IMG/VR virus record: IMGVR_UViG_2675903606_000023
Location: 1 to 14,859 of that record
Direction: 5' to 3' (one strand)
Origin: a virus
Taxonomy: Duplodnaviria; Heunggongvirae; Uroviricota; Caudoviricetes
DNA: 14,859 nt
Under the pieces are notes generated by a model. It saw only the letters and a list, made by a program, of their open reading frames with translations. It did no database searches and was not told the origin of the DNA. The position numbers and the translations under genes were made by a program. Shown one piece after another: positions 1 to 14,859 of this stretch. Numbering within the stretch: position 1 is the first letter of the stretch; each line of letters opens with the position of its first letter.

Positions 1-74
1 CCCGTAACGCCTCTGCCACGCGCGTAACGTGACAGGGATTAAGGGTAAACTAACTGATTTTGCAAGTTTTTATT

Positions 75-1361: not shown

Positions 1362-1394
1362 TAAACCTCCCAGACGTCCAGGAGCATTAACAGG

Positions 1395-1649
1395 TTAACC
1401 GGAACTTGCATTTTTGGCACCTGGTTGTTTCTGGTTTTCGATCCATCGCATAATTTCTTCGATGTTGTACAGGCATTCACTGTAGTGCCCCGGATCACCT
1501 TCTACAGCGTAATGGCGGTATTCTTTTCCCTGCATCCATGACTTTCTTCTTGCCCGCTCAATGGTGCCAGGCTTTAGCCCTGTTGATGCAATGAGGACTC
1601 TCTCCGTACACCATTTGCTGGGGGTTATCTGATAGATGATTGTCTGCAT
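1395..1649 (-). CDS. xis: Excisionase-like small DNA-binding protein (Xis)
   Basis: 84-aa ORF immediately upstream of int on the same strand; AGGAG SD 6 nt upstream of ATG; sequence pattern (W...RW...GKEYRHY) resembles the winged-helix Xis family. Family call is from memory, not a search. Confidence 0.6.
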   Translation of the reverse strand: MQTIIYQITPSKWCTERVLIASTGLKPGTIERARRKSWMQGKEYRHYAVEGDPGHYSECLYNIEEIMRWIENQKQPGAKNASSG

Positions 1650-1805
1650 GCCAAGCTCCTAAAACGTTTATCCGCGGCAGTGGCACCACACTTCAAACAT
1701 TCGTCTCACAATTTCGCGACAGTAGAAACCGTCAACATCTCGCGTCAGGTCATAGCGACTGCCATAACGCTGGTGGACCCATAGTTCAAATGCTTTATTC
1801 ACTCT

Positions 1806-2048
1806 TCACTTCCTTTTCATGGCGCGTAATTTTTTCAGGTGAGCTTCCTGCTCTGTTTCTGCCAGTATTTGTCGGTATTCCTGGTGATCAATATGTTCAA
1901 ACTGGTTGTTGAATTCACTGATGCGTACTCGACCGGAGTGTCCGTCCATGCGTCGAAAGAACACTGAGTGCTCAGTGCTGCGAGTAATCACCACAGGGTA
2001 TCCGGTCCTGTCCGTGTATATTTGCCCGCGTTGAATAAGTGTGAACAT
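1806..2048 (-). CDS. Hypothetical phage protein (80 aa from ATG at 2048; ORF is open up to 2081)
   Basis: ORF with GGGGA SD about 7 nt upstream of ATG at 2048, which lies 4 nt after the stop of the upstream gene; no recognisable family. Confidence 0.45.
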   Translation of the reverse strand: MFTLIQRGQIYTDRTGYPVVITRSTEHSVFFRRMDGHSGRVRISEFNNQFEHIDHQEYRQILAETEQEAHLKKLRAMKRK

Positions 2049-2052
2049 GTGG

Positions 2053-2682
2053 TTATCCCCAGCGGCAAATCGCAAAAACAATCAGCGCGATCGACATTGC
2101 AACACCAACAATTGCAAATGCATCAGGCCAGGTCATTGATTCACCTCCTGCGGCGGCTCTGGTAGCTGCATCCAGAACAAGGCGTTCCCTAACCACGATA
2201 AACATTCGCTCACTACAGCTTATCCAACCATCCGGAGTTACCGGAGAGTTGCCGGGTTCTTTAATGTGCAAGCGAGGCTCACCATCTTTTGGTTCAGGCC
2301 ACTGGCGCTTCATGTTGATCTTCAATTTATCTTCCATAGCAGCGGTAATTTCAGCATCACTGATACCAGCACGGCGCTGTGCATCCCACAACAGGAACTG
2401 CATATCAGCCCACTCGCTGAGATCGTCAGGTTCGGCTGCGGCTTCCAGAGCCTCTTTTGAGAGATGTTTCAGCGGACCAATGGGGCCAACGCAGCCAAAT
2501 GTGGAGTCAGACCATTTGGCATGCTCGTGGCGAATCTGTTCGCGTTCCAGTGATGCCAGTGCAATTTTTAATGCGGTAAGCATGTTGTTTTGATCTTCAT
2601 CAAGTCCGAACGGTATTTCATCCCGTGCTGACTCAATGCTGGTAATCGTTTTCTGTAGCCATTCTTTGGTAATAGTGGTCAT
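2053..2682 (-). CDS. Hypothetical early protein, DUF550/MazG-like N-terminal region (tentative) with C-terminal hydrophobic segment
   Basis: 209-aa ORF, AGGAG SD 7 nt upstream of ATG; start lies 2 nt after the stop of the Ea22-like gene; C-terminal AFAIVGVAMSIALIVFAICRWG looks like a transmembrane anchor. The DUF550 assignment is recollection only. Confidence 0.5.
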   Translation of the reverse strand: MTTITKEWLQKTITSIESARDEIPFGLDEDQNNMLTALKIALASLEREQIRHEHAKWSDSTFGCVGPIGPLKHLSKEALEAAAEPDDLSEWADMQFLLWDAQRRAGISDAEITAAMEDKLKINMKRQWPEPKDGEPRLHIKEPGNSPVTPDGWISCSERMFIVVRERLVLDAATRAAAGGESMTWPDAFAIVGVAMSIALIVFAICRWG

Positions 2683-2683
2683 C

Positions 2684-3028
2684 TCACTCTCCTTCTATGC
2701 GAATACCAGCAGCAGTCAGTGCTGCATTGACCTCATCAGCGTAGTAGTACGTTAATCCACTTGATGATTTAGCCAGCTTGAATGGTTCTGGTAACTTCAC
2801 TGTGCGGGACTCCTGTTCGTCGATACGCTGTTTTGCTTCCTCCAGTTCATCCAGCAAATCAGCGATAATATCCACTTCACGATGACGGATTTCTCTCTTA
2901 AACGCAGCCAAAGCTGCATCACAATCCTGCTCAGCATTTGGACTGTCTGGATTTTCCTGATACCACGCCAGCGTCGATTGATAGTTTTGTGCCGCCTCAC
3001 GCAATGCCTGATAGTCAATCTTGCTCAC
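2684..3028 (-). CDS. Ead/Ea22-like protein
   Basis: 114-aa ORF starting at GTG with AGGAGG SD 6 nt upstream; N-terminal MSKIDYQALREAA... resembles lambdoid Ea22/Ead-like proteins; position between xis and the immunity region matches the lambda ea22 location. Confidence 0.55.
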   Translation of the reverse strand: MSKIDYQALREAAQNYQSTLAWYQENPDSPNAEQDCDAALAAFKREIRHREVDIIADLLDELEEAKQRIDEQESRTVKLPEPFKLAKSSSGLTYYYADEVNAALTAAGIRIEGE

Positions 3029-3329
3029 TGGCTGCCTCCTTTGCCGGGATTTCTAACTTTTGAGTGGTTGTATCAAATTCAAACAACTTAACCACGTCAT
3101 CAAACAGGACATAATCACCATCAGGATCTTCAGTCATATCTGCGCCACAATCCTGACCGCACGAGTCGCAACCATCCATATCAAGCTCGTATCGCTTCAG
3201 GTTTGCGATATTTGATAAATTCAGCGCCAGTACAGCCAGGTCATAAACCTCTTCGGCAGTGACATCGCTGTTCAGTCCCATTTCATGGCGATATATGATT
3301 TTTTCTACTCGTTGTTTTGTGATCGTCAT
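3015..3329 (-). CDS. Hypothetical acidic phage protein (start uncertain: TTG 3353, ATG 3329 or ATG 3281)
   Basis: ORF 3015..3353; the ATG at 3329 has an AAGAG/GGAG SD-like purine stretch upstream; 3' end overlaps the Ea22-like start by 14 nt; acidic, Cys-containing C-terminal half. Confidence 0.45.
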   Translation of the reverse strand: MTITKQRVEKIIYRHEMGLNSDVTAEEVYDLAVLALNLSNIANLKRYELDMDGCDSCGQDCGADMTEDPDGDYVLFDDVVKLFEFDTTTQKLEIPAKEAASEQD

Positions 3330-3600
3330 TTTTCTCTTCACTCCGATATACAAGGATTACTACACCCCCTCTGCTGATTGCGCGAGCTGGATCCCCTGGT
3401 TCCATGCCGTCAATTCCGAAGGCTTCGGAAAACGCATTCATTGCCTTCTGGCGTTCATCCTGCTTACGGCGTTTATTCCATTTTTTCAGGAACAACAGCG
3501 ACAGCCACCGTCCGCTGCAGAACACGATGTAAAAATAACCAAGGAGCGCCAGGCCGACATTCAGGGCCGTTTCTATGGTTAGTTGTGAGTCAGTTGCCAT
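3283..3600 (-). CDS. Small putative membrane protein (single N-terminal transmembrane helix, basic juxtamembrane segment)
   Basis: 105-aa ORF; N-terminal hydrophobic stretch LTIETALNVGLALLGYFYIVFCSG followed by KKWNKRRKQDERQK; overlaps neighbouring genes at both ends. Confidence 0.45.
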   Translation of the reverse strand: MATDSQLTIETALNVGLALLGYFYIVFCSGRWLSLLFLKKWNKRRKQDERQKAMNAFSEAFGIDGMEPGDPARAISRGGVVILVYRSEEKNDDHKTTSRKNHISP

Positions 3601-3838
3601 TTCTTACCTGTTTAAGTAACTGGTTGAACATAACACTTAGGGGATTGCTGTATCCAAACGGCAGATTGTTTACGCAGTACAGAATCATTTTGTTTTTTTC
3701 TCCAGTTCGTACTATTAACCCATTCCACAATAACCGTGATAATTCATTACTGATAGAAGTTGCGCTTCTTCCAAGTGCGAGGGATATATCTTCTCTACTG
3801 CAATCTGGATTTTCCTGGATATACTCGATAACGGTCAT
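3590..3838 (-). CDS. Small hypothetical protein with helix-turn-helix-like segment
   Basis: ORF 3590..3880; the ATG at 3838 has an AAGGGA SD about 6 nt upstream and lies just after the stop (3849) of the upstream gene; SREDISLALGRSATSISNELSRLL resembles a winged-helix recognition region. Confidence 0.5.
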   Translation of the reverse strand: MTVIEYIQENPDCSREDISLALGRSATSISNELSRLLWNGLIVRTGEKNKMILYCVNNLPFGYSNPLSVMFNQLLKQVRNGN

Positions 3839-3848
3839 GTGGTCCCTT

Positions 3849-4430
3849 TTACTTAATATCTGTTTCGGATTGCATGCCATGAGTATTCATTTCGTTAATA
3901 ATTTCATCCAGAAGGATTTCAAGCCCTTCTCGACCCATATCTGAAAGAATGAAACCTTTATCAGGGGAAGTAGTGAGCATTTTCTGATAAAGAAACAGCG
4001 CTCTTCCCATTCCTTCAGCTTCGCCGTATTTTTGAATTAAATTCCATTCAATATACTGTTGTAAGGCAAATCGAATGGGGCCGGGATATATCGTCATAAA
4101 CCCATACATCCCGTTATATACCACGGCGTGTTCAGTTGTTCCGTGTTCATTCAGGATATCAATTGTGCCGTTCTTGTCTTCTTCTTCGTTGATGAATGCC
4201 GTCACATACAACCATCGCCACTGAGCAACCTTCATCTCAACCGGAAGTTTACCCAGTAATCCTGCTTCGTCGGCTTGCGCCAGACACTGAAGGATACGTA
4301 AACCTCGCACATTAGGAGTATCGAATTCTCCGGCATCCAGACGACGTATGGCGTCGTGATAATCAATCGTCATACTGCCAGTTCGTATACCATTGGCTGT
4401 TGCTTCAGCCTGGAATTCATCGTATTGCAT
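3849..4430 (-). CDS. Hypothetical phage protein (193 aa), function unknown
   Basis: Long ORF with GAGGAA SD about 9 nt upstream of ATG at 4430; coding-like composition; no family recognised by eye. Confidence 0.55.
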   Translation of the reverse strand: MQYDEFQAEATANGIRTGSMTIDYHDAIRRLDAGEFDTPNVRGLRILQCLAQADEAGLLGKLPVEMKVAQWRWLYVTAFINEEEDKNGTIDILNEHGTTEHAVVYNGMYGFMTIYPGPIRFALQQYIEWNLIQKYGEAEGMGRALFLYQKMLTTSPDKGFILSDMGREGLEILLDEIINEMNTHGMQSETDIK

Positions 4431-4435
4431 GATAT

Positions 4436-4630
4436 TTATTCCTCATCTTCATCTTCATCTTCATCTGCTGGTGCAATAACGTCATATCCTGCCTTTTCTG
4501 CAATAAACAGGAATGTTGAAAGAGTTCCTACAAGTTCATCGTCATGAACATGGCGAATGAATATTACTTTCCCGTTTTTGATGGTCAGCAATATTCTGGT
4601 TTGTTCGTGTTCTGCTGTTTTCTGATGCAT
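4436..4630 (-). CDS. Small protein with poly-acidic C-terminal tail (…ADEDEDEDEE)
   Basis: 64-aa ORF, GGGAGA SD 6 nt upstream of ATG at 4630; the C-terminal tail is encoded by the (TCATCT)x4 repeat at 4443..4466. Confidence 0.5.
   Translation of the reverse strand: MHQKTAEHEQTRILLTIKNGKVIFIRHVHDDELVGTLSTFLFIAEKAGYDVIAPADEDEDEDEE
4443..4466. repeat. Hexanucleotide tandem repeat (TCATCT)x4 encoding an alternating Asp/Glu tail
   Basis: Four perfect tandem copies read directly from the sequence, in frame at the 3' end of the 64-aa ORF. Confidence 0.9.
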
Positions 4631-4632
4631 TA

Positions 4633-4746
4633 TTATCTCCCGTATGCTTTACGCAGAAATAAGCAGGCAATATGCATGTAATTTTCACCGTATTGTGCAA
4701 TAAGGCAGGCGGTCTTGTGTGATGCCATATTCTTTATAAAAGTCAC
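4633..4746 (-). CDS. Candidate small ORF (37 aa from GTG 4746; 31 aa from ATG 4728), not in the supplied ORF track
   Basis: GGAGG (4758..4754) lies 7 nt upstream of GTG at 4746; the reading frame runs to a TAA at 4635..4633, 2 nt before the ATG of the 64-aa gene. Translation: VTFIKNMASHKTACLIAQYGENYMHIACLFLRKAYGR. Confidence 0.25.
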   Translation of the reverse strand: MTFIKNMASHKTACLIAQYGENYMHIACLFLRKAYGR

Positions 4747-4824
4747 AATAAAGCCTCCTGTGGATTAAGGTTGTAACAATCCCCGGCGATAAAACCGCAA
4801 TAAACGTTCAGGGCATATTTGTTG

Positions 4825-5190
4825 TTATTGCGCTAATTCTTTTTCGGCAGCAGCTTTTGTATACTCACATGCAAAACTCAGAATTTCGCTGCCGAGTGTT
4901 TTCGTTTCGTGATTACTGGACATATGTAATACCTGTGTTGCATGCAATAAATGATAAACATTTACCGCAAATGAATCAGGCTCCAGACAAATGCCTTCGT
5001 AATTATCTTGCTGTGAGGTTGTTTCTGTCATTGCTCCTGAAGTGCATGCGAGCCTGTTTTTGACAATTCTCTTTTCTCTAATCACTATATCGGCAACATC
5101 TATTGCCTTTACAACCTCCGGGAGAAGTTCCGGGTTTGTATAATCAAAGTCATCAACATGGAGAACAGTTATGTTTTCGAACTTTTTCAT
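4825..5190 (-). CDS. Hypothetical phage protein (121 aa), function unknown
   Basis: ORF with AGGAAG SD about 4-5 nt upstream of ATG at 5190; no recognisable family. Confidence 0.55.
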   Translation of the reverse strand: MKKFENITVLHVDDFDYTNPELLPEVVKAIDVADIVIREKRIVKNRLACTSGAMTETTSQQDNYEGICLEPDSFAVNVYHLLHATQVLHMSSNHETKTLGSEILSFACEYTKAAAEKELAQ

Positions 5191-5318
5191 GGCTTCCTCA
5201 GCTGACTTATATGTTCTGCTATATAGCGAGTCTCAGAAGTGTTTTCATATTGAGACTGTTTCCGCAATGATTGATAAAAATGTTCGCATGTACCTTGAAG
5301 GGCGAAGCGGCGATTATG

Positions 5319-5867
5319 TCACCATTGGTATTGGTTCTTCCGCAGAAGAGCTTCGCGAGATAAGGGGCAAACTTGTTGAGATGCGTCATGGTGTTGCTGC
5401 TCCTCACTTTTTGGTTGCTCCGGAGGAGTAACCTCACCAGTTAACAGGCACATCGGATCGCAGCCAAGAATATTTGCCAGTGGGATAAGCATACTGATAG
5501 TTGGTTCATACTCTCCGCTCTCCCACTGGATGATAATTTCTTCATCGAGATCGAGCAGCCTGGCGAGTTCGGCGGTTGTTAAGCCGCAGGCTTCGCGTTG
5601 GGTGCGAAGGTTAACCAGCCAGCTTTCAGGGAAGGATTGTTTTTGTTGTGCAGGAGAAGCAGCAGATAGAGCATATTCATGGATAAATTCCATTACCTCA
5701 ATGCCCAGTTCCTTTGAGCGAGCACAATCCAGAAGATGGAATGTGCGTACAGCACTTAGCAAATTTGCAATATTTAATGCAAAGGAATCAAGTTCTAAGC
5801 CCTTAAGCGTAACACAGCCGCAGTTGATAAAATTAGTTGTTTCTGGAGTTGCTTTTAGTGTCTTCAT
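5319..5867 (-). CDS. Protein with C-terminal XRE-family helix-turn-helix domain and uncharacterised N-terminal domain (ORF open to TTG at 5897)
   Basis: HTH_XRE-like segment LRTQREACGLTTAELARLLDLDEEIIIQWESGEYEPTISMLIPLANILG in the C-terminal half; ATG at 5867 has a GGCGGA SD-like element upstream; first gene downstream of the PL-like promoter. Confidence 0.6.
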   Translation of the reverse strand: MKTLKATPETTNFINCGCVTLKGLELDSFALNIANLLSAVRTFHLLDCARSKELGIEVMEFIHEYALSAASPAQQKQSFPESWLVNLRTQREACGLTTAELARLLDLDEEIIIQWESGEYEPTISMLIPLANILGCDPMCLLTGEVTPPEQPKSEEQQHHDASQQVCPLSREALLRKNQYQW

Positions 5868-5920
5868 ATATCCGCCAACAATTTTAAATTGAATCAAATC
5901 AAGTTATAATTGATGGTGCG

Positions 5921-5949
5921 ATATTATGTTTTGGGAAACAGGCTGTCAA
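5921..5949 (-). promoter_or_regulatory. Candidate leftward early promoter (PL-like): -35 TTGACA, 17-bp spacer, -10 TAATAT
   Basis: Minus strand reads TTGACA (5949..5944), a 17-nt spacer, then TAATAT (5926..5921); flanked by two TCAA-N7-TTGA inverted repeats (5898..5914 and 5946..5960) that could be repressor operators. Confidence 0.55.
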
Positions 5950-5978
5950 GAAAAAATTGATATCGTATATTTCAGGCA

Positions 5979-6003
5979 GAAAAAAAACGGGCAAAGCCCG
6001 TTA
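5979..6003 (-). terminator. Rho-independent terminator downstream of cI
   Basis: On the minus strand: 7-bp stem AACGGGC/GCCCGTT with a 3-nt loop (6003..5987), followed by a run of 8 U; begins 10 nt after the cI stop codon. Confidence 0.75.
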
Positions 6004-6013
6004 AAATCAAAGA

Positions 6014-6703
6014 CTAACCAAATCTGTTTATGTTGAATGGTACTGATGAGATCACTTTAGACTGGATATAAAGCAGAGCTAACCCCTCTTTTTCGATGCT
6101 CCATGGTTGATAATTGGGGTTATCAGATAACACCATGATTTTGCTTCCAATTTTTTGAAGCCTTTTCACGTAGCATTCTCCATCAAAACAAAATGCATAA
6201 ATACCATCGCCATCAAAATAAGTTACTGTCTTATCAAGAAAAAGAAGGTCGCCAGGTGAGATTGTGGGAGCCATACTGTCTCCTCTGGCGTTACCTATTT
6301 CTATATTTTTGAATGCCCGATTTCCAACAAGACGTCGGGCATATTCAGGATCAAGTTCTATTGAGCGCACTACATCTATCAAGTCACCACGGACATGAGT
6401 TCCATCACCGCAACTAAACTCAACATCAAGGACATTAAATACGACGCTATCTGTTCTTGTCTGGTGTTTCTCTTGCGAAGAAAAGGTTGGTGAGGAGTCT
6501 TCACCTAAGAACCAGGATTGTGGATAACCGCTAATCTCTGATAAATGCGCGAGCTTATCACTCCGTGGAAATGTTTTTCCTGTTGTCCAGTACTGCACTG
6601 ATTGCGCACTCACACCTAACTTGCGGGCCAGTTGAGCCTGAGTCCATCCTTTTGCTTTCAGCATCGCGGCTATTCGATTTTCCGTGTTTTTGACGTTCTT
6701 CAT
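6014..6703 (-). CDS. cI: CI-like prophage repressor (N-terminal HTH, C-terminal S24 LexA-like peptidase domain)
   Basis: N-terminal HTH (RIAAMLKAKGWTQAQLARKLGVSAQSVQYW); C-terminal autocleavage motifs GDSMAPTI (Ser) and YVKRL (Lys); AGGA SD 7 nt upstream of ATG at 6703 (ORF open to TTG at 6709); divergent from a Cro-like gene. Confidence 0.85.
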   Translation of the reverse strand: MKNVKNTENRIAAMLKAKGWTQAQLARKLGVSAQSVQYWTTGKTFPRSDKLAHLSEISGYPQSWFLGEDSSPTFSSQEKHQTRTDSVVFNVLDVEFSCGDGTHVRGDLIDVVRSIELDPEYARRLVGNRAFKNIEIGNARGDSMAPTISPGDLLFLDKTVTYFDGDGIYAFCFDGECYVKRLQKIGSKIMVLSDNPNYQPWSIEKEGLALLYIQSKVISSVPFNINRFG

Positions 6704-6709
6704 GACCAA

Positions 6710-6836
6710 ATCCTGTGGGTTTCTTTACAAGGATAAATCTTTACTTGATTTTAGTGTATTCGATCCTTTTGCAACTTGCATGTTAATTTAAACTTGATGT
6801 ATTCTTGATTTATAAAGTTAATATTGGTGCTTTGTT
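6710..6836. promoter_or_regulatory. Divergent cI/cro intergenic control region (OR/PR/PRM equivalent) with repeated CTTGAT motifs
   Basis: 127-bp AT-rich spacer between divergent cI and cro-like genes; CTTGAT occurs at 6744..6749, 6793..6798 and 6804..6809 (the last two 11 bp apart); candidate -35/-10 hexamers present but not uniquely assignable by eye. Confidence 0.6.
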
Positions 6837-7127
6837 ATGGAAGGAAATGATTACGACAAACTTCGTGCATTAATTGCGCAAAATGCCATAGCGCGAAATC
6901 TTGGTGTGACGCCGCAAGCGGTGAATCAGTGGTTTTCAAAAAGCACAATTCCTGCTCGTTTCGTTTTACGAGTATGTGAAGTAGTTGCATGGAAGGTTAC
7001 GCCTCATGGCTTAAGGCCAGATCTTTATCCTCACCCTGAAGATGGAATTCCTAACTTGTTACGCAAAAGCCTAAATCCAAGTTCACCACACAGAGCGGAT
7101 GGAATACACGCAGGAGATAAACAATGA
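6837..7127 (+). CDS. Cro-like transcriptional regulator (YdaS/Cro-type HTH)
   Basis: 96-aa ORF divergent from cI; HTH segment IARNLGVTPQAVNQWFSKSTIP; pattern resembles the YdaS-type Cro analogues of Rac-like prophages. Confidence 0.7.
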   Translation: MEGNDYDKLRALIAQNAIARNLGVTPQAVNQWFSKSTIPARFVLRVCEVVAWKVTPHGLRPDLYPHPEDGIPNLLRKSLNPSSPHRADGIHAGDKQ

Positions 7128-7831
7128 ACACCGCAATTTTTAACGGCAAAGCATCCATGACCAGCGTTGAGATCGCAGAGCTGGTGGGAAGCCGACCAGA
7201 TAGTGTTAAGAGAACTATTGAAACACTGGCTAAAAAGGGAATCATCCAATTTCCACAGACTGTGGAAATTGAGAATAAACAATCACTTGGGCCTCGCCGA
7301 TTTTCTAGCGCGTATGTATTCGAAGGTGAACGAGGTAAGCGCGACAGCATCATTGTCGTCGCACAGCTCTGTCCTGAATTCACTGCTCGCCTGGTAGATC
7401 GCTGGCGCGAACTGGAAGAACAGATCCGTAAGCCAATGAGCGAAATCGAAATGGTTGCCGCGATGGCTCTTGAAGCAGTTCGTCAGCAGAAACGGATCAC
7501 TCAGGTGGAAGAAAAAGTCAGCCACGTTGCTGAAACAGTCGAGCAAATTAAAAAGGGCACTATTCGTGAGGGCTATGCCGGATATCGCCAACTGAAAGCA
7601 AAAACCGGTTTGTCAGATGATAAATGCCGCAATCTGGTGAACGCCTATCAGATTCCTACAGACACCCATGAGTTCATGACGCCGGACGGATTGTTGTCAC
7701 GTCGCGCAATTGTTGCTGTGGAACCGTTTATGGCTGCTTTTTATCGGGTTATGGAGGAAGCAGAACCGCGAGGGACTCGCTGGTATCACCCGAAAATGGG
7801 GTTATTTCAGGTTATTGGTTGGCAGCGGTGA
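7124..7831 (+). CDS. Phage regulatory protein with Rha/antirepressor-like N-terminal DNA-binding region (tentative)
   Basis: 235-aa ORF whose ATG overlaps the cro-like stop (ATGA at 7124..7127); GGAG SD 8 nt upstream; N-terminal SVEIAELVGSRPDSVKRTIETL resembles the Rha-family HTH signature. Confidence 0.55.
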   Translation: MNTAIFNGKASMTSVEIAELVGSRPDSVKRTIETLAKKGIIQFPQTVEIENKQSLGPRRFSSAYVFEGERGKRDSIIVVAQLCPEFTARLVDRWRELEEQIRKPMSEIEMVAAMALEAVRQQKRITQVEEKVSHVAETVEQIKKGTIREGYAGYRQLKAKTGLSDDKCRNLVNAYQIPTDTHEFMTPDGLLSRRAIVAVEPFMAAFYRVMEEAEPRGTRWYHPKMGLFQVIGWQR

Positions 7832-7854
7832 AAAAAAGCCGGGAGTAACCCGGC
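7831..7854 (-). terminator. Hairpin with U-tract on the minus strand (antisense-oriented intrinsic terminator) abutting the stop codon of the 235-aa gene
   Basis: GCCGGG (7838..7843), loop agtaa, CCCGGC (7849..7854); the plus strand has A7 immediately 5' of the stem (7831..7837), so the canonical U-tract is on the minus-strand transcript. Confidence 0.5.
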
Positions 7855-8053
7855 TCACTCAACATCAATAACGGGGAGCTGTTTCGCATAAAACGGCTCC
7901 GAAACATCCAAGAACAGTTCTAAAGATATCAGCAGCTATATGATCATTTCAAGACCAAATATTGATTCTGCAATTTCGGGACGTTACACTGTCTCCGCAC
8001 CTTATAAAGCGGGTGCCGGGGGTCGCAGCCCGGAATTGTCAACGGCGATATAT

Positions 8054-8073
8054 GACGCGCCAGCGTCTTTTTT
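8054..8073 (+). terminator. Candidate weak rho-independent terminator (tR1-like position)
   Basis: GACGC-gcca-GCGTC 5-bp GC-rich stem with tetraloop, followed by T6 (8068..8073), in the untranslated spacer downstream of the 235-aa regulator. Confidence 0.4.
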
Positions 8074-8239
8074 ATCGTCCGCGCTCACGCACGCCAGAAT
8101 TATGGTGGGCTGGGCAGGGGAGCCGAAAGGCTCGCCGGTCTCCGTTGACGCCGGTACTGCGAACCCTGTTCAGTCTGCCACCAGTGAGTTTCGCAGCTCC
8201 GGTGGTGGAAGTTTTCCACAGTCAACGGAGGCTGCCATC

Positions 8240-8602
8240 ATGGCTACTGTCCCAACTTCCCCATACCTGAAAATTGAAGTTGTCAACGGCAAGGCCGTTA
8301 TTTTCTCCCTGCATGTTGCCTGCCACTTTAAGCGAATGCACCAGAACATCGTTGACAAAATCGAGTATCTGAACTGCTCACGCGAGTTTTTTACCCGCAA
8401 TTTCATACCGGGTACTTATCACATCTACGGTGACTCCCTGCGTGGTTATTACATCACTCTTGATGGCCTGATGATGCTTCAGCTTGGGTTAAGTCTGCGC
8501 ACAATGCGGTACTACGAGAGCTGCATTGAGGCATTCCATGAAGCTGAAACCAGCCTGAATCATACAGCTTTCCGCTGTAATCAATGGGAGGTGCGCCCAT
8601 GA
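8240..8602 (+). CDS. Rha-family phage regulatory protein (120 aa from ATG 8240)
   Basis: GGAGG SD 8 nt upstream of ATG at 8240; segments FKRMHQNIVDKIEYL and YHIYGDSLRGYYITLDGLMMLQLGLS match the Rha-family pattern as I remember it. The upstream in-frame extension to 7940 has non-coding-like composition and no SD. Confidence 0.55.
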   Translation: MATVPTSPYLKIEVVNGKAVIFSLHVACHFKRMHQNIVDKIEYLNCSREFFTRNFIPGTYHIYGDSLRGYYITLDGLMMLQLGLSLRTMRYYESCIEAFHEAETSLNHTAFRCNQWEVRP

Positions 8603-8832
8603 TTCGCCGCCTCGTTAATTCTCTGTATCACCGATACAACCGTTGCCCCCGTGTGGGGCAGTGGTTCGCCACCAGCGACGGTCGCGTTCTGCGGGTTTGC
8701 CTGGTCAGCACCGAAAGCCAGAAAGTTGTGTGTGAATTACTGGGGCGTAACTACACCATCAGTTACCCACTAGTGGCGTTTCAGTCCGGAAAAATGTTTA
8801 AACGCCTGGGAGGTGGCTATGCGTCCGTCTGA
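8599..8832 (+). CDS. Small hypothetical protein (77 aa)
   Basis: ATG at 8599 overlaps the stop of the preceding gene (ATGA) and is preceded by GGGAGG at a 7-nt spacing; Cys- and Arg-rich; no family recognised. Confidence 0.45.
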   Translation: MIRRLVNSLYHRYNRCPRVGQWFATSDGRVLRVCLVSTESQKVVCELLGRNYTISYPLVAFQSGKMFKRLGGGYASV

Positions 8833-9712
8833 TCTTCTGCTCGATTTTGGGCATCCGGTTGCTTATTACCCTGGGCTCGTTAAATACATGGGAAGTCCGC
8901 ACGCTGTTATTTTCTTTGGTCAGATTTTTTACTGGCAGGATAAAGCACATGCAGCGGAAGGCGTACATAAAACGCGTGAAGAGATACAACACGAAACCGG
9001 ACTTACATTTGAACAACAGGCTGTAGCGCGTAAGCATCTTGTGTCCAGAGGCATTTTGGTTGAAACCAACAAGCGTCTTGAGCACAAAATGTTCTACCGT
9101 ATAGATTGTGAGCGCCTTAATGAAATTATCAATGAAAACAATCAGTTTTCCCGAAATGGGGAAACCCGTTTTCGGGAAACTGTAAAACCCAATTTCGCGG
9201 AGGAGGGAAAGCCTTCACCGCGGACACGGGAAACCCCTCGCCGCGGTGAAGGGAAAACCAATTTCGATCTTACAGAGAATACAACAGAGATTACTTCAGA
9301 GAGTACTACAGAGAGTAAAAACACTATTGGCGCATCCGCTGACGCGTCTGCACCAGCGCGTTCTGCCCGACAGGAATATTCACCGGAATTTGAACAGGCA
9401 TGGCAGGAATATCTCAAACGTGCTGGTGGCAATTCCAAGTCAGCAGCCTTCAAAGCCTGGAAAGCACGTATCAGGGAGGGAATAAAACCGGAGAACATGC
9501 TTGATGGCGTGAAGCGGTATGCCGCCTGGGTGCGTGTCTCTGGAAATACCGGTACCCAGTTCGTGAAGCAGGCGTCGACGTTCTTTGGACCCGATCGTCA
9601 TTTCGAGGAATCCTGGCAACAGCCAGCAGCCCCCGGAGGTGGGCGGGGCAAAAGCCTCCCGATCTCGGGATTCAGTGAACAGGACTACGGCTCAACGAAC
9701 TTCAACTGGTGA
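8819..9712 (+). CDS. Replication initiator / replisome organiser (lambda O-like functional position) with internal origin-like repeats
   Basis: GGGAGG SD 5 nt upstream of ATG at 8819 (ORF open to GTG at 8813); N-terminal winged-helix-like region; low-complexity linker encoded by iteron-like DNA (9147..9316); followed by a DnaC-like loader and DnaB-like helicase. Confidence 0.7.
   Translation: MRPSDLLLDFGHPVAYYPGLVKYMGSPHAVIFFGQIFYWQDKAHAAEGVHKTREEIQHETGLTFEQQAVARKHLVSRGILVETNKRLEHKMFYRIDCERLNEIINENNQFSRNGETRFRETVKPNFAEEGKPSPRTRETPRRGEGKTNFDLTENTTEITSESTTESKNTIGASADASAPARSARQEYSPEFEQAWQEYLKRAGGNSKSAAFKAWKARIREGIKPENMLDGVKRYAAWVRVSGNTGTQFVKQASTFFGPDRHFEESWQQPAAPGGGRGKSLPISGFSEQDYGSTNFNW
9147..9316. 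repeat. Iteron-like repeat cluster (GGGAAAC-type repeats and palindromes) followed by ACAGAGA-type repeats: candidate replication origin inside the initiator gene
   Basis: GGGAAA(A/G)C at 9159, 9174, 9205, 9228 and 9251; palindromic arms TTTTCCCGAAA/TTTTCGGGAAA and CACCGCGG/CCGCGGTG flank two of the copies; ACAGAGA-like repeats at 9271..9316. Confidence 0.55.
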
Positions 9713-9731
9713 TTTTGTGGGGAGGGTGAAA

Positions 9732-10622
9732 ATGACTAATTTCCTGAACAAACAACACATGCAACACGACAAAGCGCAGTTACTTAACCGCAAGGCAGAC
9801 CTGGAAGAGGAGCTGGCATTTGTCCGTGGCGGAAAGCGTCCGTGGCGCTGTGAGCATTGGGTGCAAAGCACTGAGACGGTGTCCTGCGGGAAACACGGAA
9901 AATACACGCGCTATGTGCTGACTGGCCCGGATGTAAGGGGGAAAGCTGTCAAACGGGTGTCCGGTTGCCTGTCCTGCCTCAGTGAGGAGCTGGGCCGCGT
10001 GTATGACGAATTACGCGCCCTGAAGGTTCGTGAATTACTCGATCAGGCCGGTATTGCCCGCCGGTTCCAGGACTGTGAGTTTGAGAATTATCAGGCGGTG
10101 AATACTGACGCACAGAAAAACCTTGAAGCCTGTCAGCGCTATGCCGCTTCCTGGAAGAAATGTCTCGCTGCAGGCACCAGCATGGTCATGATTGGCAATT
10201 GTGGTACCGGTAAAAATCACCTGGCTGTATCAATGGCAAAAAATATTATTCGCCACCACCAGGCAACCATAGAAATCACGGATGTAATGCGGCTTACCCG
10301 TGCGGTGAAAAATACCTGGCGCCACAACTCTGAGCGCACTGACGATGAAGTGATTAATCATTTTGCATCGCTGGATCTGCTTATCATCGATGAGGTTGGT
10401 GTGCAGTTCGGTACGCCTGCGGAGATAACCATCCTGCAGGAAATCATAAATGCGCGTTACGAAAGCGTTTTACCGACAATTTTGATCAGCAACCTGACGT
10501 TTGAACAGCTTAAGGAATCCATTGGTGAACGGATTGTGGATCGCGTTACTGATGGTGGGCGTAACTGCCTGGTGTTTGGTTGGGAAAGCTACCGCGCGCA
10601 TATCAGAGGTGTGGCAGCATGA
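9732..10622 (+). CDS. DnaC-like helicase loader (IstB/DnaC-family AAA+ ATPase) with N-terminal Cys-rich zinc-ribbon-like region
   Basis: Walker A GNCGTGKNHLA and Walker B LLIIDEVG; Cys cluster CEHW..CGKHG..CLSCL; GGAGGG SD 5 nt upstream of ATG at 9732 (ORF open to 9585). Confidence 0.8.
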   Translation: MTNFLNKQHMQHDKAQLLNRKADLEEELAFVRGGKRPWRCEHWVQSTETVSCGKHGKYTRYVLTGPDVRGKAVKRVSGCLSCLSEELGRVYDELRALKVRELLDQAGIARRFQDCEFENYQAVNTDAQKNLEACQRYAASWKKCLAAGTSMVMIGNCGTGKNHLAVSMAKNIIRHHQATIEITDVMRLTRAVKNTWRHNSERTDDEVINHFASLDLLIIDEVGVQFGTPAEITILQEIINARYESVLPTILISNLTFEQLKESIGERIVDRVTDGGRNCLVFGWESYRAHIRGVAA

Positions 10623-12019
10623 CAAACCCGACAAATCCGGCGTGGCGTAATGATGACCTGGAAGGAGCTGTCATCGGTGCGTTTTTTCTGCGTGGGGCTG
10701 ATCCGGAAGTGATGGATATTCTGGCCACGCTTCCGGCGGATGTCTTTTTCGTGCGTCAGTACAGGGATATTTACGCGGGAATTTGCAGACAGGCCCGTGT
10801 ATCCGGCGTCATTGACCCCGTACTGCTGTGCAATGAGATGCCGGAACTTGCCCCGGTGATTACCGACACCGGACGCAAAACCTGGGTGAAGTCTTCACTG
10901 GAGCACTATGTCGCAGCGTTGCGGCGTAATGCCGTACTGCGCGATGCAGAAAAAACACTGACTGAAGCATTACAGAATTTACGTGATGCGTATACCTGTG
11001 AAGCAGCCGAGGATGCCCTGAAGGATGCGCAGAACATGATGGCCTCACTGTCGACCGGAAAGGGCGTCATTCAGCCGGTTCACATTGATGATGTCCTTCC
11101 AGAAGTGGTCGACCGTGTTGAATGCCGCAATCAGGGACTGGAGAAATCCAGGGCGCTGATGACCGGTATTGATGAGCTGGACGCAAAAACGGGCGGTATG
11201 GAGCCAGGCGACCTGGTATTCATTGCGGCTCGTCCTTCGATGGGGAAAACCGAACTTGCGCTGGATATCATCGACAAGGTGACTGAGCAGGGGCATGGCG
11301 TGCTTCTGTTCACCATGGAGATGGCGAACATTCAGATTGGTGAACGTATGGTGTCTGCTGCCGGGGGAATGCCGGTATCCCGTCTTAAGTCAGTTGCCCG
11401 TTTTGAAGACGAAGACTGGGCACGTTTCTCACAGGGCGTGGGACGAATGACGGGGCGTAATATCTGGATGGTGGACCAGGCAAACCTGACCATTGATGAG
11501 ATATGTGCAACTACGAGGCACCACCGGATGAAACACCCGGAAACGGCGCTGGTGGTGGTCGATTACCTCGGCCTGATTAAAACCCGCAGCATGGGGCGTC
11601 ACGACCTTGCTGTGGGGGAAATCTCAAAGGGACTAAAAAGCCTGGCAAAATCCGGCGGTTTTCCGCTGATTGCTCTGAGCCAGCTCTCCCGCGGTGTGGA
11701 ATCCAGACCCAATAAACGCCCCATGAACTCGGACCTGAAAAACTCAGGGGAAATAGAGGCGGATGCAGACATCATTCTGATGCTTTACAGGGATGAGGTG
11801 TACAACCCGGAGACACAGGCGAGAGGCATAGCAGAAATCAACATCACGAAACAGCGTAATGGTACGCTGGGTACCATTTACCGGCGTTTTCATAACGGGC
11901 ATTTTCTGCCTGTGGACCAGGAGAGTGCCCGGGTTCTTTCCACTCCCATGACGCCGGGCAATCCGCGCAGATACAGCAATAACCGCATGTCGGGTAGTAA
12001 AACGGAGCGTTTATTTTGA
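10619..12019 (+). CDS. DnaB-like replicative DNA helicase
   Basis: 467 aa from ATG at 10619, which overlaps the loader stop (ATGA); DnaB-type N-terminal domain and RecA-like C-terminal domain with Walker A ARPSMGKTELAL and Walker B-like VVVDYLGLI. Confidence 0.9.
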   Translation: MTNPTNPAWRNDDLEGAVIGAFFLRGADPEVMDILATLPADVFFVRQYRDIYAGICRQARVSGVIDPVLLCNEMPELAPVITDTGRKTWVKSSLEHYVAALRRNAVLRDAEKTLTEALQNLRDAYTCEAAEDALKDAQNMMASLSTGKGVIQPVHIDDVLPEVVDRVECRNQGLEKSRALMTGIDELDAKTGGMEPGDLVFIAARPSMGKTELALDIIDKVTEQGHGVLLFTMEMANIQIGERMVSAAGGMPVSRLKSVARFEDEDWARFSQGVGRMTGRNIWMVDQANLTIDEICATTRHHRMKHPETALVVVDYLGLIKTRSMGRHDLAVGEISKGLKSLAKSGGFPLIALSQLSRGVESRPNKRPMNSDLKNSGEIEADADIILMLYRDEVYNPETQARGIAEINITKQRNGTLGTIYRRFHNGHFLPVDQESARVLSTPMTPGNPRRYSNNRMSGSKTERLF

Positions 12020-12273
12020 ACAACAGAACAACCACTGTTTCACCGGAACAACTTCGTCGGCAGGCGCAGGAGATGCTTCGTTGTGCTGAACAGATGGAAA
12101 AAACGAGCGTGAAAAAAGATACGCTCCGCAAGCAGCTTACTCCGGCGCTTCGTGATCTGCTGCAGGCAAAACACCGCACACAAAAGGCGGTGGATGAGCT
12201 GGTGGATTGCGTGGCGGAACTGGAAGGACAGGTAAGCCAGTTTGAAATACTGGTGAAGGAGTTTACTGCGTGA
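12016..12273 (+). CDS. Hypothetical coiled-coil protein (85 aa), TTG start overlapping the helicase stop
   Basis: TTG at 12016 overlaps the TGA of the helicase gene (TTGA); GGAG 8 nt upstream; charged, helix-rich composition. Confidence 0.45.
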   Translation: MNNRTTTVSPEQLRRQAQEMLRCAEQMEKTSVKKDTLRKQLTPALRDLLQAKHRTQKAVDELVDCVAELEGQVSQFEILVKEFTA

Positions 12274-12318
12274 TGGCTGAATTTTTTCTTCTGCGCTCAT
12301 GCAATACCGTTCGCTGAG

Positions 12319-13314
12319 GTGACCGTGAGAGCACTACTGACCCCTGAAATTGCCCCGCGTATGGGGATCGTATTGTTCAGGCCCGGTTCAGAGCTGATGC
12401 CCCTGTTTATGCAGGGGCGTGTCCTGCTGGAGCCTGAGCCGGAACGTTATTCATCTTTTGCCAGTGGTGCCGTTCCGGCGGCATCACAACCGCTGGCGGA
12501 TGATCCTGCCGTTCGGGCCGTGTTCCGCAATGAGGCAGTGATCCGTCGTGCTGGTGGCGTGGAATGTCTTGAAAGCTGGTTACTTCGTGAAAAGGGCTGT
12601 CAGTGGCCTCATTCCAACTGGCACAGCGAGAACATGACCACAATGCGACACGCTCCGGGCGCAATCCGTCTGTGCTGGCACTGCGATAACCAGCTGCGCG
12701 ATCAGTTCACGGAACGGCTGGAATCAATGGCAACGGATAACTGTGCCCGCTGGGTGTTGTCTGTTGTGCGTCGGGATCTCGGTTTTGATGACAGTCACGT
12801 TGTGACAATGCCGGAACTGTGCTGGTGGCTGGCTCGTAATGACCTGGCTGATGCCTTACCGGAAAGTGCAGCCCGTAAGGCACTGAGATTACCGAAGCCT
12901 GTTGTGCCGTCTGTCACCCGGGAGAGTGACCTTGTTCCTTCGGTTCCTGCCACCAGCATTATCCAGGATAAAGCGAAAAAGGTGCTGGCGCTGAAAGTGG
13001 ATCCAGAGTCGCCGGAGTCTTTTATGTTACGCCCAAAACGTCGTCGCTGGGTTAATGAAAAGTACACGCGCTGGGTTAAGACACAGCCGTGTGCATGTTG
13101 TGGTAAGCCAGCCGACGATCCTCATCACCTGATTGGTCATGGTCAGGGTGGAATGGGTACAAAAGCGCATGACCTTTTTGTGTTGCCTTTGTGCAGAAAA
13201 CACCATGACGAACTGCATGCGGATACCGTGGCATTTGAAGAGAAGTATGGTTCCCAACTGGAGCTGATATTTCGTTTTATCGATCGCGCGCTGGCGATTG
13301 GTGTGCTGTCCTGA
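12319..13314 (+). CDS. DUF968-like protein with C-terminal HNH-like Cys/His motif (putative nuclease); start uncertain
   Basis: 331-aa ORF from GTG at 12319; C-terminal CACCGKPADDPHHLIGHGQGGMGTKAHDLFVLPLCRKHHDELH; located immediately upstream of Q, as in Qin-type prophages. Confidence 0.6.
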   Translation: MTVRALLTPEIAPRMGIVLFRPGSELMPLFMQGRVLLEPEPERYSSFASGAVPAASQPLADDPAVRAVFRNEAVIRRAGGVECLESWLLREKGCQWPHSNWHSENMTTMRHAPGAIRLCWHCDNQLRDQFTERLESMATDNCARWVLSVVRRDLGFDDSHVVTMPELCWWLARNDLADALPESAARKALRLPKPVVPSVTRESDLVPSVPATSIIQDKAKKVLALKVDPESPESFMLRPKRRRWVNEKYTRWVKTQPCACCGKPADDPHHLIGHGQGGMGTKAHDLFVLPLCRKHHDELHADTVAFEEKYGSQLELIFRFIDRALAIGVLS

Positions 13315-13331
13315 TTTTGTGGAGAAAGTTG

Positions 13332-13712
13332 ATGCGTGATATTCAGATAGTTCTTGAACGCTGGGGGGCATGGGCTGCAAGTGGTAACACCGGGGTGGAC
13401 TATTCTCCGATCGCTGCCGGATTCAAAGGACTTTTACCATCTGCCACTAAACCACGTCCGGCCTGCTGCGATGATGACGGACTTATCATTGAAAACTGTC
13501 TTGCTCGTCTGAAGCAGAAAAAACCTGAGGAGTATTCGCTTCTCATTGCTCATTATTTGTTGCGAATATCAAAAAGACAGATAGCCAGGACGAGAAAGAA
13601 AAGCGAAAAAGCAATACGAATTGAGATGCAGATAGCCGAAGGGTTTATTGACGGATGTTTGTCTGTGCTGGGGGTAAGACTGGAGATGGACGACTGGCTG
13701 CTAAAAAAGTAA
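13332..13712 (+). CDS. Late-gene antitermination protein Q (QuuD-like family)
   Basis: 126 aa from ATG at 13332 (GGAG SD 7 nt upstream; ORF open to TTG at 13317); MRDIQIVLERWGAWAA...IAAGFKGLL...CCDDD...EGFIDGCLSVLGVRLEMD matches the QuuD-type Q pattern from memory. Confidence 0.6.
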   Translation: MRDIQIVLERWGAWAASGNTGVDYSPIAAGFKGLLPSATKPRPACCDDDGLIIENCLARLKQKKPEEYSLLIAHYLLRISKRQIARTRKKSEKAIRIEMQIAEGFIDGCLSVLGVRLEMDDWLLKK

Positions 13713-13767
13713 AAAATGATTAGTGCGGTCCGCAAAAAGTATGTCAGTATGTTAAGAGTGGTTACTT

Positions 13768-13788
13768 CGCCCGCGAGCGGGTTTTTTT
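13768..13788 (+). terminator. Rho-independent terminator about 55 nt downstream of Q (tR'-like)
   Basis: GC-only stem CCCG/CGGG with tetraloop CGAG (13770..13781), followed by T7 (13782..13788). Confidence 0.6.
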
Positions 13789-13910
13789 ATGGCTGAAATC
13801 GGTCCAGTACAGTAAACGTGCTGGTGGCGGTGAATACCTGTCTTTCAGCTTGCTGGCTTTTTCGACAAGAGTTATTGGTGTGTCACGTTAACCGAAAAAG
13901 GGAAAAAGAC

Positions 13911-14108
13911 ATGCTGAAACAGCAGGATATGACAGAAACCGCCAGAGTGGTGTTTAATGAATTAAGCGTCACCGAACCGGCGACAGTCGGGGAGATTGCG
14001 CAGAATACTTACCTTTCACGCGAACGCTGTCAGTTAATACTGACCCAACTTGTTATGGCGGGTCTGGCAGACTATCAGTTCGGTTGTTACAGACGCCTTC
14101 CGCAGTGA
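13911..14108 (+). CDS. Small winged-helix/HTH-like protein (65 aa)
   Basis: AAGGG SD 8 nt upstream of ATG at 13911 (ORF open to GTG at 13818 without SD); ATVGEIAQNTYLSRERCQLILTQLVMAGL resembles an HTH recognition region; bracketed by intrinsic terminators on both sides. Confidence 0.5.
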   Translation: MLKQQDMTETARVVFNELSVTEPATVGEIAQNTYLSRERCQLILTQLVMAGLADYQFGCYRRLPQ

Positions 14109-14118
14109 AGGCTTTTTT
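14095..14118 (+). terminator. Rho-independent terminator overlapping the stop codon of the small wHTH gene
   Basis: 6-bp stem GCCTTC/GAAGGC with 6-nt loop (14095..14112), followed by TTTTTTATTT. Confidence 0.65.
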
Positions 14119-14259
14119 ATTTGTGGTAAATGGGCGGCTGGTGGGTGTTAGGGGCACTCACCAGCCATCTGCTCATGCGTTGTGGTCACAAGCAAACCTC
14201 AGGCCCATCTGCTTTGCGCAAAAGCGGTATGAGCCTATCAGAGAAGTGCTTATTGATCT

Positions 14260-14859
14260 ATGGCTAATACTGTAAAAATATCCAGTTGTGAGTTAATCAA
14301 CGCCGACTGCCTGGAATTTATCCGGTCGTTACCCGAAAATTCTGTTGACCTGATAGTCACGGACCCGCCGTACTTTAAAGTGAAGCCTGAGGGCTGGGAT
14401 AACCAGTGGAAGGGCGACGATGATTACCTGAAGTGGCTGGACCAGTGTCTGGCGCAGTTCTGGCGGGTGCTGAAACCTGCCGGAAGTCTTTACCTGTTCT
14501 GTGGTCATCGCCTGGCATCTGATATCGAAATCATGATGCGTGAACGCTTCAATGTGCTGAACCATATTATCTGGGCGAAGCCGTCCGGACGCTGGAACGG
14601 GTGCGACAAGGAAAGCCTGCGGGCGTATTTTCCGGCCACAGAACGCATTCTGTTCGCGGAACATTATCAGGGGCCGTATCGTCCGAAAGATGATGGCGAT
14701 GAGGCGAAGGGCAGGGCACTGAAACAGCATGTGATGGCCCCGCTGATTTCTTACTTTCGTGATGCGCGTGCTGCTCTTGGGATAACGGCAAAACAGATTG
14801 CAGATGCCACAGGAAAGAAAAACATGGTGTCGCACTGGTTCAGTGCCAGTCAGTGGCAG
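14260..14859 (+). CDS. DNA methyltransferase (N6-adenine or N4-cytosine class, DPPY motif), 5' part only; continues beyond the window end
   Basis: Open frame from ATG at 14260 (first ATG after an in-frame TGA at 14254..14256) to the window edge with no stop; translation contains SVDLIVTDPPY, resembling YhdJ-like beta-class amino-MTases; absent from the ORF track because it is incomplete. Confidence 0.8.
   Translation, partial: MANTVKISSCELINADCLEFIRSLPENSVDLIVTDPPYFKVKPEGWDNQWKGDDDYLKWLDQCLAQFWRVLKPAGSLYLFCGHRLASDIEIMMRERFNVLNHIIWAKPSGRWNGCDKESLRAYFPATERILFAEHYQGPYRPKDDGDEAKGRALKQHVMAPLISYFRDARAALGITAKQIADATGKKNMVSHWFSASQWQ

Follow-up and report, generated by a model that had tools for sequence, protein, structure and literature searches.

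A late-operon leader with stacked terminators, a winged-helix gene and a conserved structured leader upstream of an orphan phage DNA methyltransferase

We analysed a 14,859-nt stretch of DNA from a virus of the class Caudoviricetes (IMG/VR record IMGVR_UViG_2675903606_000023, positions 1 to 14,859; hereafter the window), concentrating on the 547-nt interval at 13,713-14,259 which separates the gene for antiterminator Q from a gene for a DNA methyltransferase. Following Q, the interval contains a putative late promoter PR', an intrinsic terminator (T1), a conserved block, a gene for a 65-aa protein, a second terminator (T2) and a structured leader that runs up to the methyltransferase start (Table 1). 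The small gene, the leader and the methyltransferase gene make up a three-part cassette. A reading of the same DNA made without database searches (the sequence-only reading) had placed the interval in the zone between Q and the lysis genes where phages carry cargo genes (morons), and this was borne out: Q lies upstream, and holin and lysozyme genes come after the cassette. Because Q belongs to family PF06530 and the cassette is followed by holin and lysozyme, we interpret the interval with high confidence as a late-operon leader whose stacked terminators precede an orphan, toxic, anti-restriction methyltransferase.

Table 1. Features of the Q-methyltransferase interval and its borders (window coordinates)
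Feature	Position	Strand	Evidence
Antiterminator Q, Q21/Q933W family	13329..13712	+	Pfam PF06530, E 9e-52
Putative PR': -10 CAGTAT (13745-13750) and initial transcribed motif TGTTAAGAGTGGTTAC	13745..13765	+	Homology to 933W, phiP27
T1, first intrinsic terminator after PR' (tR'-type), left cassette edge	13769..13789	+	Consensus scan, homology break
Conserved block TTGCTG-N17-TATTGG-TGTGTCAC	13850..13886	+	Fixed spacing in 27 taxa
65-aa winged-helix protein gene (phrog_331)	13911..14108	+	Open reading frame, dN/dS, structure model
T2, hairpin over the small-gene stop codon, and U-run	14095..14118	+	Terminator scan, fold
Structured non-coding methyltransferase leader	14128..14259	+	Alignment, covariation, covariance model
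Leader helix A	14131-14135/14203-14207		
Leader helix P1	14136-14166		
Leader helix P2	14170-14173/14191-14194		
Leader helix D	14209-14215/14221-14227		
N-terminal 200 aa of M.EcoGI/II-family beta-class N6-adenine DNA methyltransferase	14260..14859, runs off window	+	PF01555

The arrangement of a small gene followed by a methyltransferase gene, to which the sequence-only reading had drawn attention, reflects genuine linkage at a near-fixed distance across 25 species-level loci. In 21 of the 25 species-representative loci, the small gene and a gene for a DPPY methyltransferase of about 350 aa are 148-155 nt apart. In the other four, the downstream gene is cut, decayed or offset, and the leader is still detected by a covariance model in all 25. 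The pair persists in Rosenbergiella and Plesiomonas at 37-41% small-protein identity, phages of Morganella, Providencia and Hafnia keep it at 138-153 nt, and Yersinia phages keep the order too. Within IMG/VR, all 77 methyltransferase copies are accompanied by leader and small gene, and 72 of 73 small-gene copies by leader and methyltransferase; trio linkage was likewise present in 54 of 55 phage records. The order Q - small open reading frame (ORF) - methylase recurs with 95-98.5% identity in many Shiga toxin (Stx) 2a phages and in PPyecE_EH1910, and with partial homology in phiP27 and SfV, while phage 1720a-02 matches the window at 95.4% over the whole query. The 547-nt interval was found in 2394 of 5426 complete E. 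coli genomes, with at most eight copies per genome; only 13 E. coli records match it at 99% or more. Three different Q families precede the cassette, namely PF06530 (window), PF06323 (Klebsiella, L006) and PF03589 (SfV, O104:H4 and Salmonella L010). The Q protein of the window is 48% identical to that of 933W and matches the solved Q21 structure (PDB 6p18, E 8e-8), which indicates a distant relationship. Existing annotation names the parts as hypothetical protein, TrmB-family regulator and DNA methylase, and we found no description of the trio, the leader, the small gene or the control of M.EcoGII-type genes in the literature.

The leader is about 135 nt long, conserved in long blocks, and 74-82% identical in comparisons that show the adjacent ORF saturated at its synonymous sites. 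Its unpaired segments are conserved as strongly as the paired ones. In a MAFFT alignment of 27 taxa, a four-helix junction (A, formed by UGGGC/GCCCA, with P1, P2 and D) is paired in 94.6% of cells, and sliding the helix partners drops pairing to 22-48%. Compensatory changes were observed at eight pairs (21 cells), a result matched by none of 500 shuffles, G-U pairs are consistent with the sense RNA strand only, and the leader sequence of the window folds at z -3.2. No purine-rich Shine-Dalgarno (SD) sequence was found before the methyltransferase ATG. Because the leader is conserved and noncoding, shows sense-strand G-U pairs and compensatory change, folds in the window and adjoins an ATG lacking an SD sequence, we conclude from the alignments that it behaves as a functional RNA. 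The covariance model detects exactly one sense-strand leader copy, directly 5' of the methyltransferase, in every methyltransferase-bearing locus, and none in 933W or ATCC 25922. Searches of Rfam 15 gave no plus-strand match at E <= 1 in the window and none at E <= 0.5 in four other genera.

Two other explanations of the leader were considered and put aside. A 45-aa ORF at 14130-14267, which overlaps the methyltransferase start and had suggested translational coupling, is interrupted in most taxa, either by stop codons or by frameshifts. A role as DNA palindrome or operator is disfavoured by the sense-only G-U pairs and the compensatory changes. A long hairpin and direct repeats had been reported here from sequence alone. 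The hairpin stands, as P1, an inverted repeat with 12-nt arms (14136-14147/14155-14166) forming about 13 bp and extended by further pairs; the direct repeat, CCATCTGCT at 14165 and 14205, is present as well and is not kept in other lineages. A first RNAalifold fold, in which AUGGGC pairs with GCUCAU and GGUCA with UGAUC beside the AUG, was partly superseded after distant sequences were added, and we keep this pairing as a possible alternative conformer. In most taxa a GATC (Dam) site precedes the methyltransferase ATG by 3 nt (14252-14262), within a segment able to pair with GGUCA at 14187-14191. In Yersinia phage P840 (L203 1353-1875), a winged-helix-like ORF of 77 aa lies about 270 nt upstream of the methyltransferase, a strong terminator stands immediately before a much-diverged leader, and the P1 stem sequence is entirely different.

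The DPPY-motif methyltransferase previously recognised at the end of the window was confirmed: it starts as given in Table 1, carries TDPPYF and matches PF01555. Its 200 visible residues are identical at 197 positions to a 349-aa methyltransferase of an O104:H4 prophage, with like beta-class motif order and prophage position; the match is to one or other of the two O104:H4 paralogues. O104:H4 is the source of M.EcoGI and M.EcoGII, each 349 aa long and identical at 333 of 349 positions (REBASE; PMC5778455). The features of this family, i.e. an N-terminal DPPY, a central target recognition domain and a C-terminal FxGxG, are all found, the C-terminal part being seen only in two relatives (L005 and L119), and in the second of these, E. 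coli B19374, the enzyme is 354 aa long. M.EcoGII is reported to methylate adenines whatever their context, to work in vitro by itself and without specificity, to be harmful if constitutive and to stay unexpressed in the lysogen, and phage 1720a-02 was named as the carrier of a very similar enzyme (PMC5778455). By sequence we assign the window methyltransferase to the M.EcoGI/II family as an orphan enzyme and assume that it is likewise non-specific. A weak match to the Xre-type helix-turn-helix (HTH) family HTH_3 (E 0.019) was noted in its central region (14758-14844, residues 167-195, LGITAKQIADATGKKNMVSHW).

To the right of the window, E. coli B19374 carries the same prophage with three mismatches in 8147 nt and was therefore used as its extension. 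There, the genes that come next after that for the methyltransferase encode a RelE toxin, an HTH protein, TerB, DUF3927, a SASA (nanS-p type) esterase, holin, YdfR, lysozyme and a lysis protein. In SfV the next features are a terminator and holin S, in phiP27 transfer RNAs (tRNAs) and then stx2e, and in O104:H4 tRNAs, an esterase and holin. No endonuclease was found after the methyltransferase in B19374 or in the SfV, phiP27, O104:H4, Klebsiella, Salmonella, Morganella, Providencia and Hafnia relatives. These results bear on the resemblance to controller (C) protein arrangements pointed out from the window alone, and on the explanation that the small protein is a C protein timing the methyltransferase and a partner endonuclease beyond the window, or that some other hidden effector follows. 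This explanation can draw on the position of a small protein of DNA-binding type directly upstream of a DPPY methyltransferase, and the best PADLOC model for the enzyme is indeed a Type II methyltransferase. However, the extended prophage holds RelE/HTH, TerB, esterase and lysis genes and an orphan enzyme, a gene content of the kind that the sequence-only reading had named for its own refutation; the enzyme family is a non-specific orphan one (PMC5778455), and the small protein has a winged-helix fold (see below) instead of the five-helix HTH of Xre type. Nor was a conserved inverted repeat of C-box type found upstream of the small gene. The idea of a restriction-modification system thus fails, and we regard it as extremely improbable. 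C proteins of Type II systems share with the present case a small protein of DNA-binding type beside a methyltransferase, possibly timing its expression; they differ in their Xre-type HTH, C-box palindromes and endonuclease coupling, none of the three being found here.

As for the small gene, the ORF with its own SD sequence read earlier from the window is present, with GGG 8 nt before the ATG. In comparisons with its relatives, the proportions of differing synonymous and nonsynonymous sites (pS and pN) are 0.45-0.94 and 0.03-0.18, and the ratio of nonsynonymous to synonymous rates (dN/dS) is 0.03-0.2 where computable. Because of these rates and a confident winged-helix model, we take the gene as real. 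The topology H1-S1-H2-H3-S2-wing-S3 is that of a winged helix-turn-helix (wHTH), so that the earlier description as HTH-like can be narrowed to the winged-helix fold. The Xre-type HTH fold (Pfam HTH_3) and a zinc-finger pattern were looked for in the protein and not found, sequence comparison with solved structures returned no meaningful match, and defence-system models gave a single marginal match (E 0.0035). The family is narrow, with 61 representatives among 1.84 billion proteins; nearly all of them are stand-alone proteins of 60-100 aa, and those with a source name come from Enterobacterales.

At least two allelic types of the small protein exist. They have in common the N-terminal MLKQQDMTE and helix 3 (CQLILTQL..AGL), in which the polar residues Q41, T45 and Q46 are conserved across alleles, and they diverge in helix 2 and the wing. 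The second allele is about 47% identical to the first and has an isoelectric point (pI) of 9.2, against 5.1 (L117 2254-2481; also in phages mEp460, cdtI, Ayreon and Stx2c phages). Since the upstream block, the first 30 nt and the leader around it are near-identical, boundaries of mosaic recombination must lie inside this 200-nt gene.

These properties leave room for a partner at the protein level, i.e. for a winged helix that binds the methyltransferase (or RNA polymerase, or Q) and serves, in antitoxin-like manner, as inhibitor, chaperone or specificity factor, the leader being an independent cis element of translation. Several observations fit: the main allele has a pI of 4.6-5.1, the structural neighbours of the protein include the protein-contact winged helices RPA32C, the MotA N-terminal domain and TFE, MLKQQDMTE is highly conserved and yet modelled less confidently, and the enzyme to be held in check is toxic (PMC5778455). 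On the other hand, alleles with the basic pI occur beside near-identical methyltransferases and leaders, and M.EcoGII works alone in vitro (PMC5778455). We therefore consider such a partnership unlikely.

Upstream of the small gene, initiation of late transcription can be placed by comparison with other phages. The annotation of 933W places pR' across the stop codon of Q, with two terminators after it; differential RNA sequencing (dRNA-seq) and Term-seq located the PR' start 258 nt upstream of the 3' end of tR' (PMC7547250), and this mapped start falls on the A of TAAGAGTGG. A motif TG-N-TAAGAGTGGTTAC is common to 933W, phiP27 and the window, and in 933W and phiP27 it stands directly 3' of promoter-like hexamers. 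By homology, PR' transcripts of the window would start near 13757. No convincing -35 could be placed for this promoter in the window, and a consensus sigma-70 promoter scan of 12500-14859 called none. Copies with a lambda-type Q show ...TAAATT-N7-AACGATGGG, with T1 at about +42 to +66; we take their TAAATT...AACGAT arrangement to resemble the -10 and sigma-dependent pause element of lambda PR'.

Both intrinsic terminators that the sequence-only reading had described, the second overlapping the small-gene stop, were recovered by a scan, T1 in a shortened form. They rank top among seven terminator-like sites in 12500-14859, where shuffles lead one to expect 2.4 +/- 1.5. T1 consists of a stem at 13769-13782 (GCCCGCGAGCGGGT) and seven T at 13783-13789 and lies 54 nt after the Q stop; its equivalent in 933W lies at +26 to +48, and the annotation of SfV lists it as a terminator. 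It is thus an intrinsic terminator shortly after a Q-specific PR' and pause region, as expected for tR', with the PR' of the window placed by homology only. When phages with different Q families are compared, their homology sets in within T1 (about 13771-13777 of the window), so that the promoter and the loading site, which are Q-specific, must be situated upstream of it. The closest relatives of the window (L001 6470-6500) have 17 nt more between GGTTACTTCGC and the T1 stem; the deletion of these from the window, with the junction near 13770/13771, leaves a 5-bp stem in place of the ancestral 8-bp one. The resulting stem, at about +13 to +26, folds at -7.1 kcal/mol, no better than shuffles. 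The deletion could weaken termination or interfere with Q loading. In this prophage lineage the shortened T1 as a whole is shifted to about +13 to +33.

T2, a full terminator in this lineage, is formed by a stem at 14095-14112 (GCCTTCCGCAGTGAAGGC) and six T; its hairpin takes in the TGA stop codon (14106-14108) and folds at -8.9 kcal/mol (z -2.2). The hairpin at the stop codon is retained in other genera with altered sequence, and its U-run ranges from absent to T8: E. coli, Enterobacter and one version from Citrobacter have a strong run, and Klebsiella, Salmonella L009 and others a weak one or none. From this variability it follows that insulation of the small gene from the methyltransferase is lineage-specific.

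Between T1 and the small gene, 25-60 nt upstream of the latter, lies the conserved block, which can also be written CTTGCTG-N13-CAGAGTTAYNNGTRTGTCA. Its spacing is invariant and its 13-nt core variable among the 27 taxa. It can be read as a -35/17/-10 promoter. It agrees with the sigma-70 consensus at only 6 of 12 positions, and the last base of the -10 hexamer is G throughout, which is why the promoter scan did not call it. We regard the block as a candidate promoter-like or operator-like element; a conserved RNA fold was looked for there and not found, and the block is not palindromic. Long-range pairing upstream of the small gene that would sequester its ribosome-binding site (inverted repeats I3-I6) was rejected, as it is not conserved.

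This anatomy raises the question whether the small gene is an autonomous moron, that is, a self-contained unit expressed in the lysogen and acting on unrelated host or prophage genes, its linkage to the methyltransferase reflecting co-inheritance. Terminators bracket the gene in E. coli, the block upstream has promoter-like fixed spacing, the position equals that of the lysogen-expressed StxS RNA in 933W-type phages, and the gene persists without methyltransferase in some prophages (ATCC 25922, PhiR5_1). In E. coli chromosomes, small-gene places also outnumber methyltransferase places: the small-gene block occurs in 2380 of 5426 complete genomes and at 4981 places, leader plus methyltransferase in 1928 genomes and at 2674 places, so that the former has about twice as many places. 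Against this, pairing at near-constant distance extends down to the lowest small-protein identities and across families of Enterobacterales, the small gene being nearly always accompanied by leader and methyltransferase and only rarely solo. As to signals of its own, T2 is present in this lineage, but its U-run is missing in many genera, where co-transcription with the methyltransferase is likely; the block is conserved, but promoter-like at half of the consensus positions only. A fully independent moron is accordingly not the explanation we favour, and we judge it improbable.

We propose instead that the late-operon leader contains a three-part cassette which controls a dangerous enzyme through two layers of silencing, and we hold this reading as a whole to be probable, if by a modest measure. 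According to the model, transcripts starting from PR' at the end of Q would meet T1 within a few tens of nucleotides. RNA that passes T1, or starts at the promoter-like block, would cover the 65-aa gene and, in E. coli lineages, stop at T2. In the lysogen, the two terminators would thus keep the toxic methyltransferase silent. After induction, Q-modified RNA polymerase would read through both of them, and the methyltransferase would be made alongside the lysis genes; the resulting heavy methylation of progeny DNA would allow escape from restriction in the next host. The second layer would reside in the methyltransferase start, which lacks an SD sequence and adjoins the folded leader, and in the winged-helix protein, whose target would be either the leader or the conserved block that precedes the small gene. 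It would work in the manner of com-mom of phage Mu or of a C protein while belonging to neither family. That protein and leader together form a control layer specific for the methyltransferase is a serious possibility to which we lean only tentatively, short of calling it probable. A more specific version, in which the leader represents a new class of cis-regulatory RNA gating translation of a non-specific DNA/RNA adenine methyltransferase and the winged helix is its dedicated trans partner, either an RNA-binding regulator of translation or a sensor of the methylation or S-adenosylmethionine state with feedback on the enzyme, is conceivable but rather unlikely.

Several observations weigh against the proposed reading. 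The putative PR' of the window has a poor -10 and -35. T1 may be leaky, as the 258-nt PR' RNA mapped in 933W implies readthrough of the equivalent hairpin in lysogens, and the stretch between the terminators may then be transcribed constitutively. The small protein matches Pfam wHTH families below their curated cutoffs, and its main allele has an acidity not usually seen in proteins that bind nucleic acids. In the leader, most pairs do not vary, and the data accommodate two or more pairings that exclude each other, which makes the exact fold a provisional one. Finally, the excess of small-gene places in E. coli chromosomes and the prophages with solo copies suggest that the small gene may have a role independent of the methyltransferase.

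It could also be argued that the interval involves no regulation beyond termination: two stacked tR' terminators would be followed by a 5' untranslated region kept for mRNA stability, processing (e.g. by RNase III on P1) or ribosome loading, and the protein would serve a late, unrelated function. In lambdoid phages it is nothing unusual for PR' to be followed by terminators in tandem, and the length of the P1 hairpin would suit such processing. However, the equal conservation of unpaired and paired leader segments points to recognition by a factor, and the linkage of the three parts is strict. We find this explanation quite improbable.

Among known systems, com-mom of phage Mu provides a functional parallel. 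There too, the gene for a small protein (Com, 62 aa) lies just upstream of a toxic, lysogen-silent, late gene for DNA modification whose start region is embedded in RNA structure. A review pairs Mom with M.EcoGII as silent, toxic enzymes (PMC12707154). The differences are substantial: Com is a zinc-finger RNA binder and com overlaps mom, whereas here a winged helix is encoded 150 nt upstream, the leader comprises several helices in about 135 nt, and late transcription would depend on Q, not on the Mu C protein. With no zinc finger in the small protein, the resemblance to an activator of the Com type is one of function only.

The PR'-tR' leaders of lambdoid phages (lambda 6S RNA; StxS) resemble the present interval in having Q, a promoter at or after the end of Q, and early intrinsic termination overridden by Q. 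933W has the same initial transcribed motif and two terminators in matching relative positions. Yet between its terminators 933W encodes a non-coding, Hfq-binding small RNA (PMC7547250), whereas here a protein gene is followed by the leader and an intact methyltransferase. Right after the second terminator (tR'), 933W (L004 3967-4065) retains a remnant of 33 C-terminal methyltransferase residues, 82% identical. Judging by this remnant, 933W-type Stx phages seem to have derived their StxS/tR' region from the cassette by deletion. In many Stx2 phages the cassette is located directly upstream of stx and is therefore on the path of late Shiga-toxin transcription.

The enzymes of the M.EcoGII type are toxic, lysogen-silent and widely used as laboratory reagents, and we did not find a description of how the phage turns them off and on; the M.EcoGII paper does not describe an upstream gene or leader (PMC5778455). 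A conserved pair of protein and RNA would provide a testable model of gene-specific control inside a Q-antiterminated operon. If leader RNA and winged-helix partner do act in this way, prophages in over a third of complete E. coli genomes carry a self-contained safety switch. If the second control layer is not real, what remains is an orphan methyltransferase of a phage behind a late-operon leader of the ordinary kind.

Some neighbouring features deserve mention. The gene preceding Q (window 12319-13314) encodes a DUF968/YdfU protein with an HNH-like match at its C-terminus (PF16784, E 4e-6), and the DUF968-Q adjacency was seen again in most relatives. On the other side of the cassette, the genes for the RelE-family toxin with its HTH partner, the TerB-family protein and DUF3927 (L119 8719-10317) are further moron-like cargo between the methyltransferase and the esterase and lysis genes, and at the corresponding place the relatives from Klebsiella, Salmonella and Yersinia have HicAB pairs. 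In phiP27 (L002 3653-4882), Q is followed by a GIY-YIG nuclease gene and then by the promoter-like hexamers and TTAAGAGTGGTTAC motif in a second copy; the nuclease gene looks like an insertion of the homing-endonuclease type that has split Q from its PR'.

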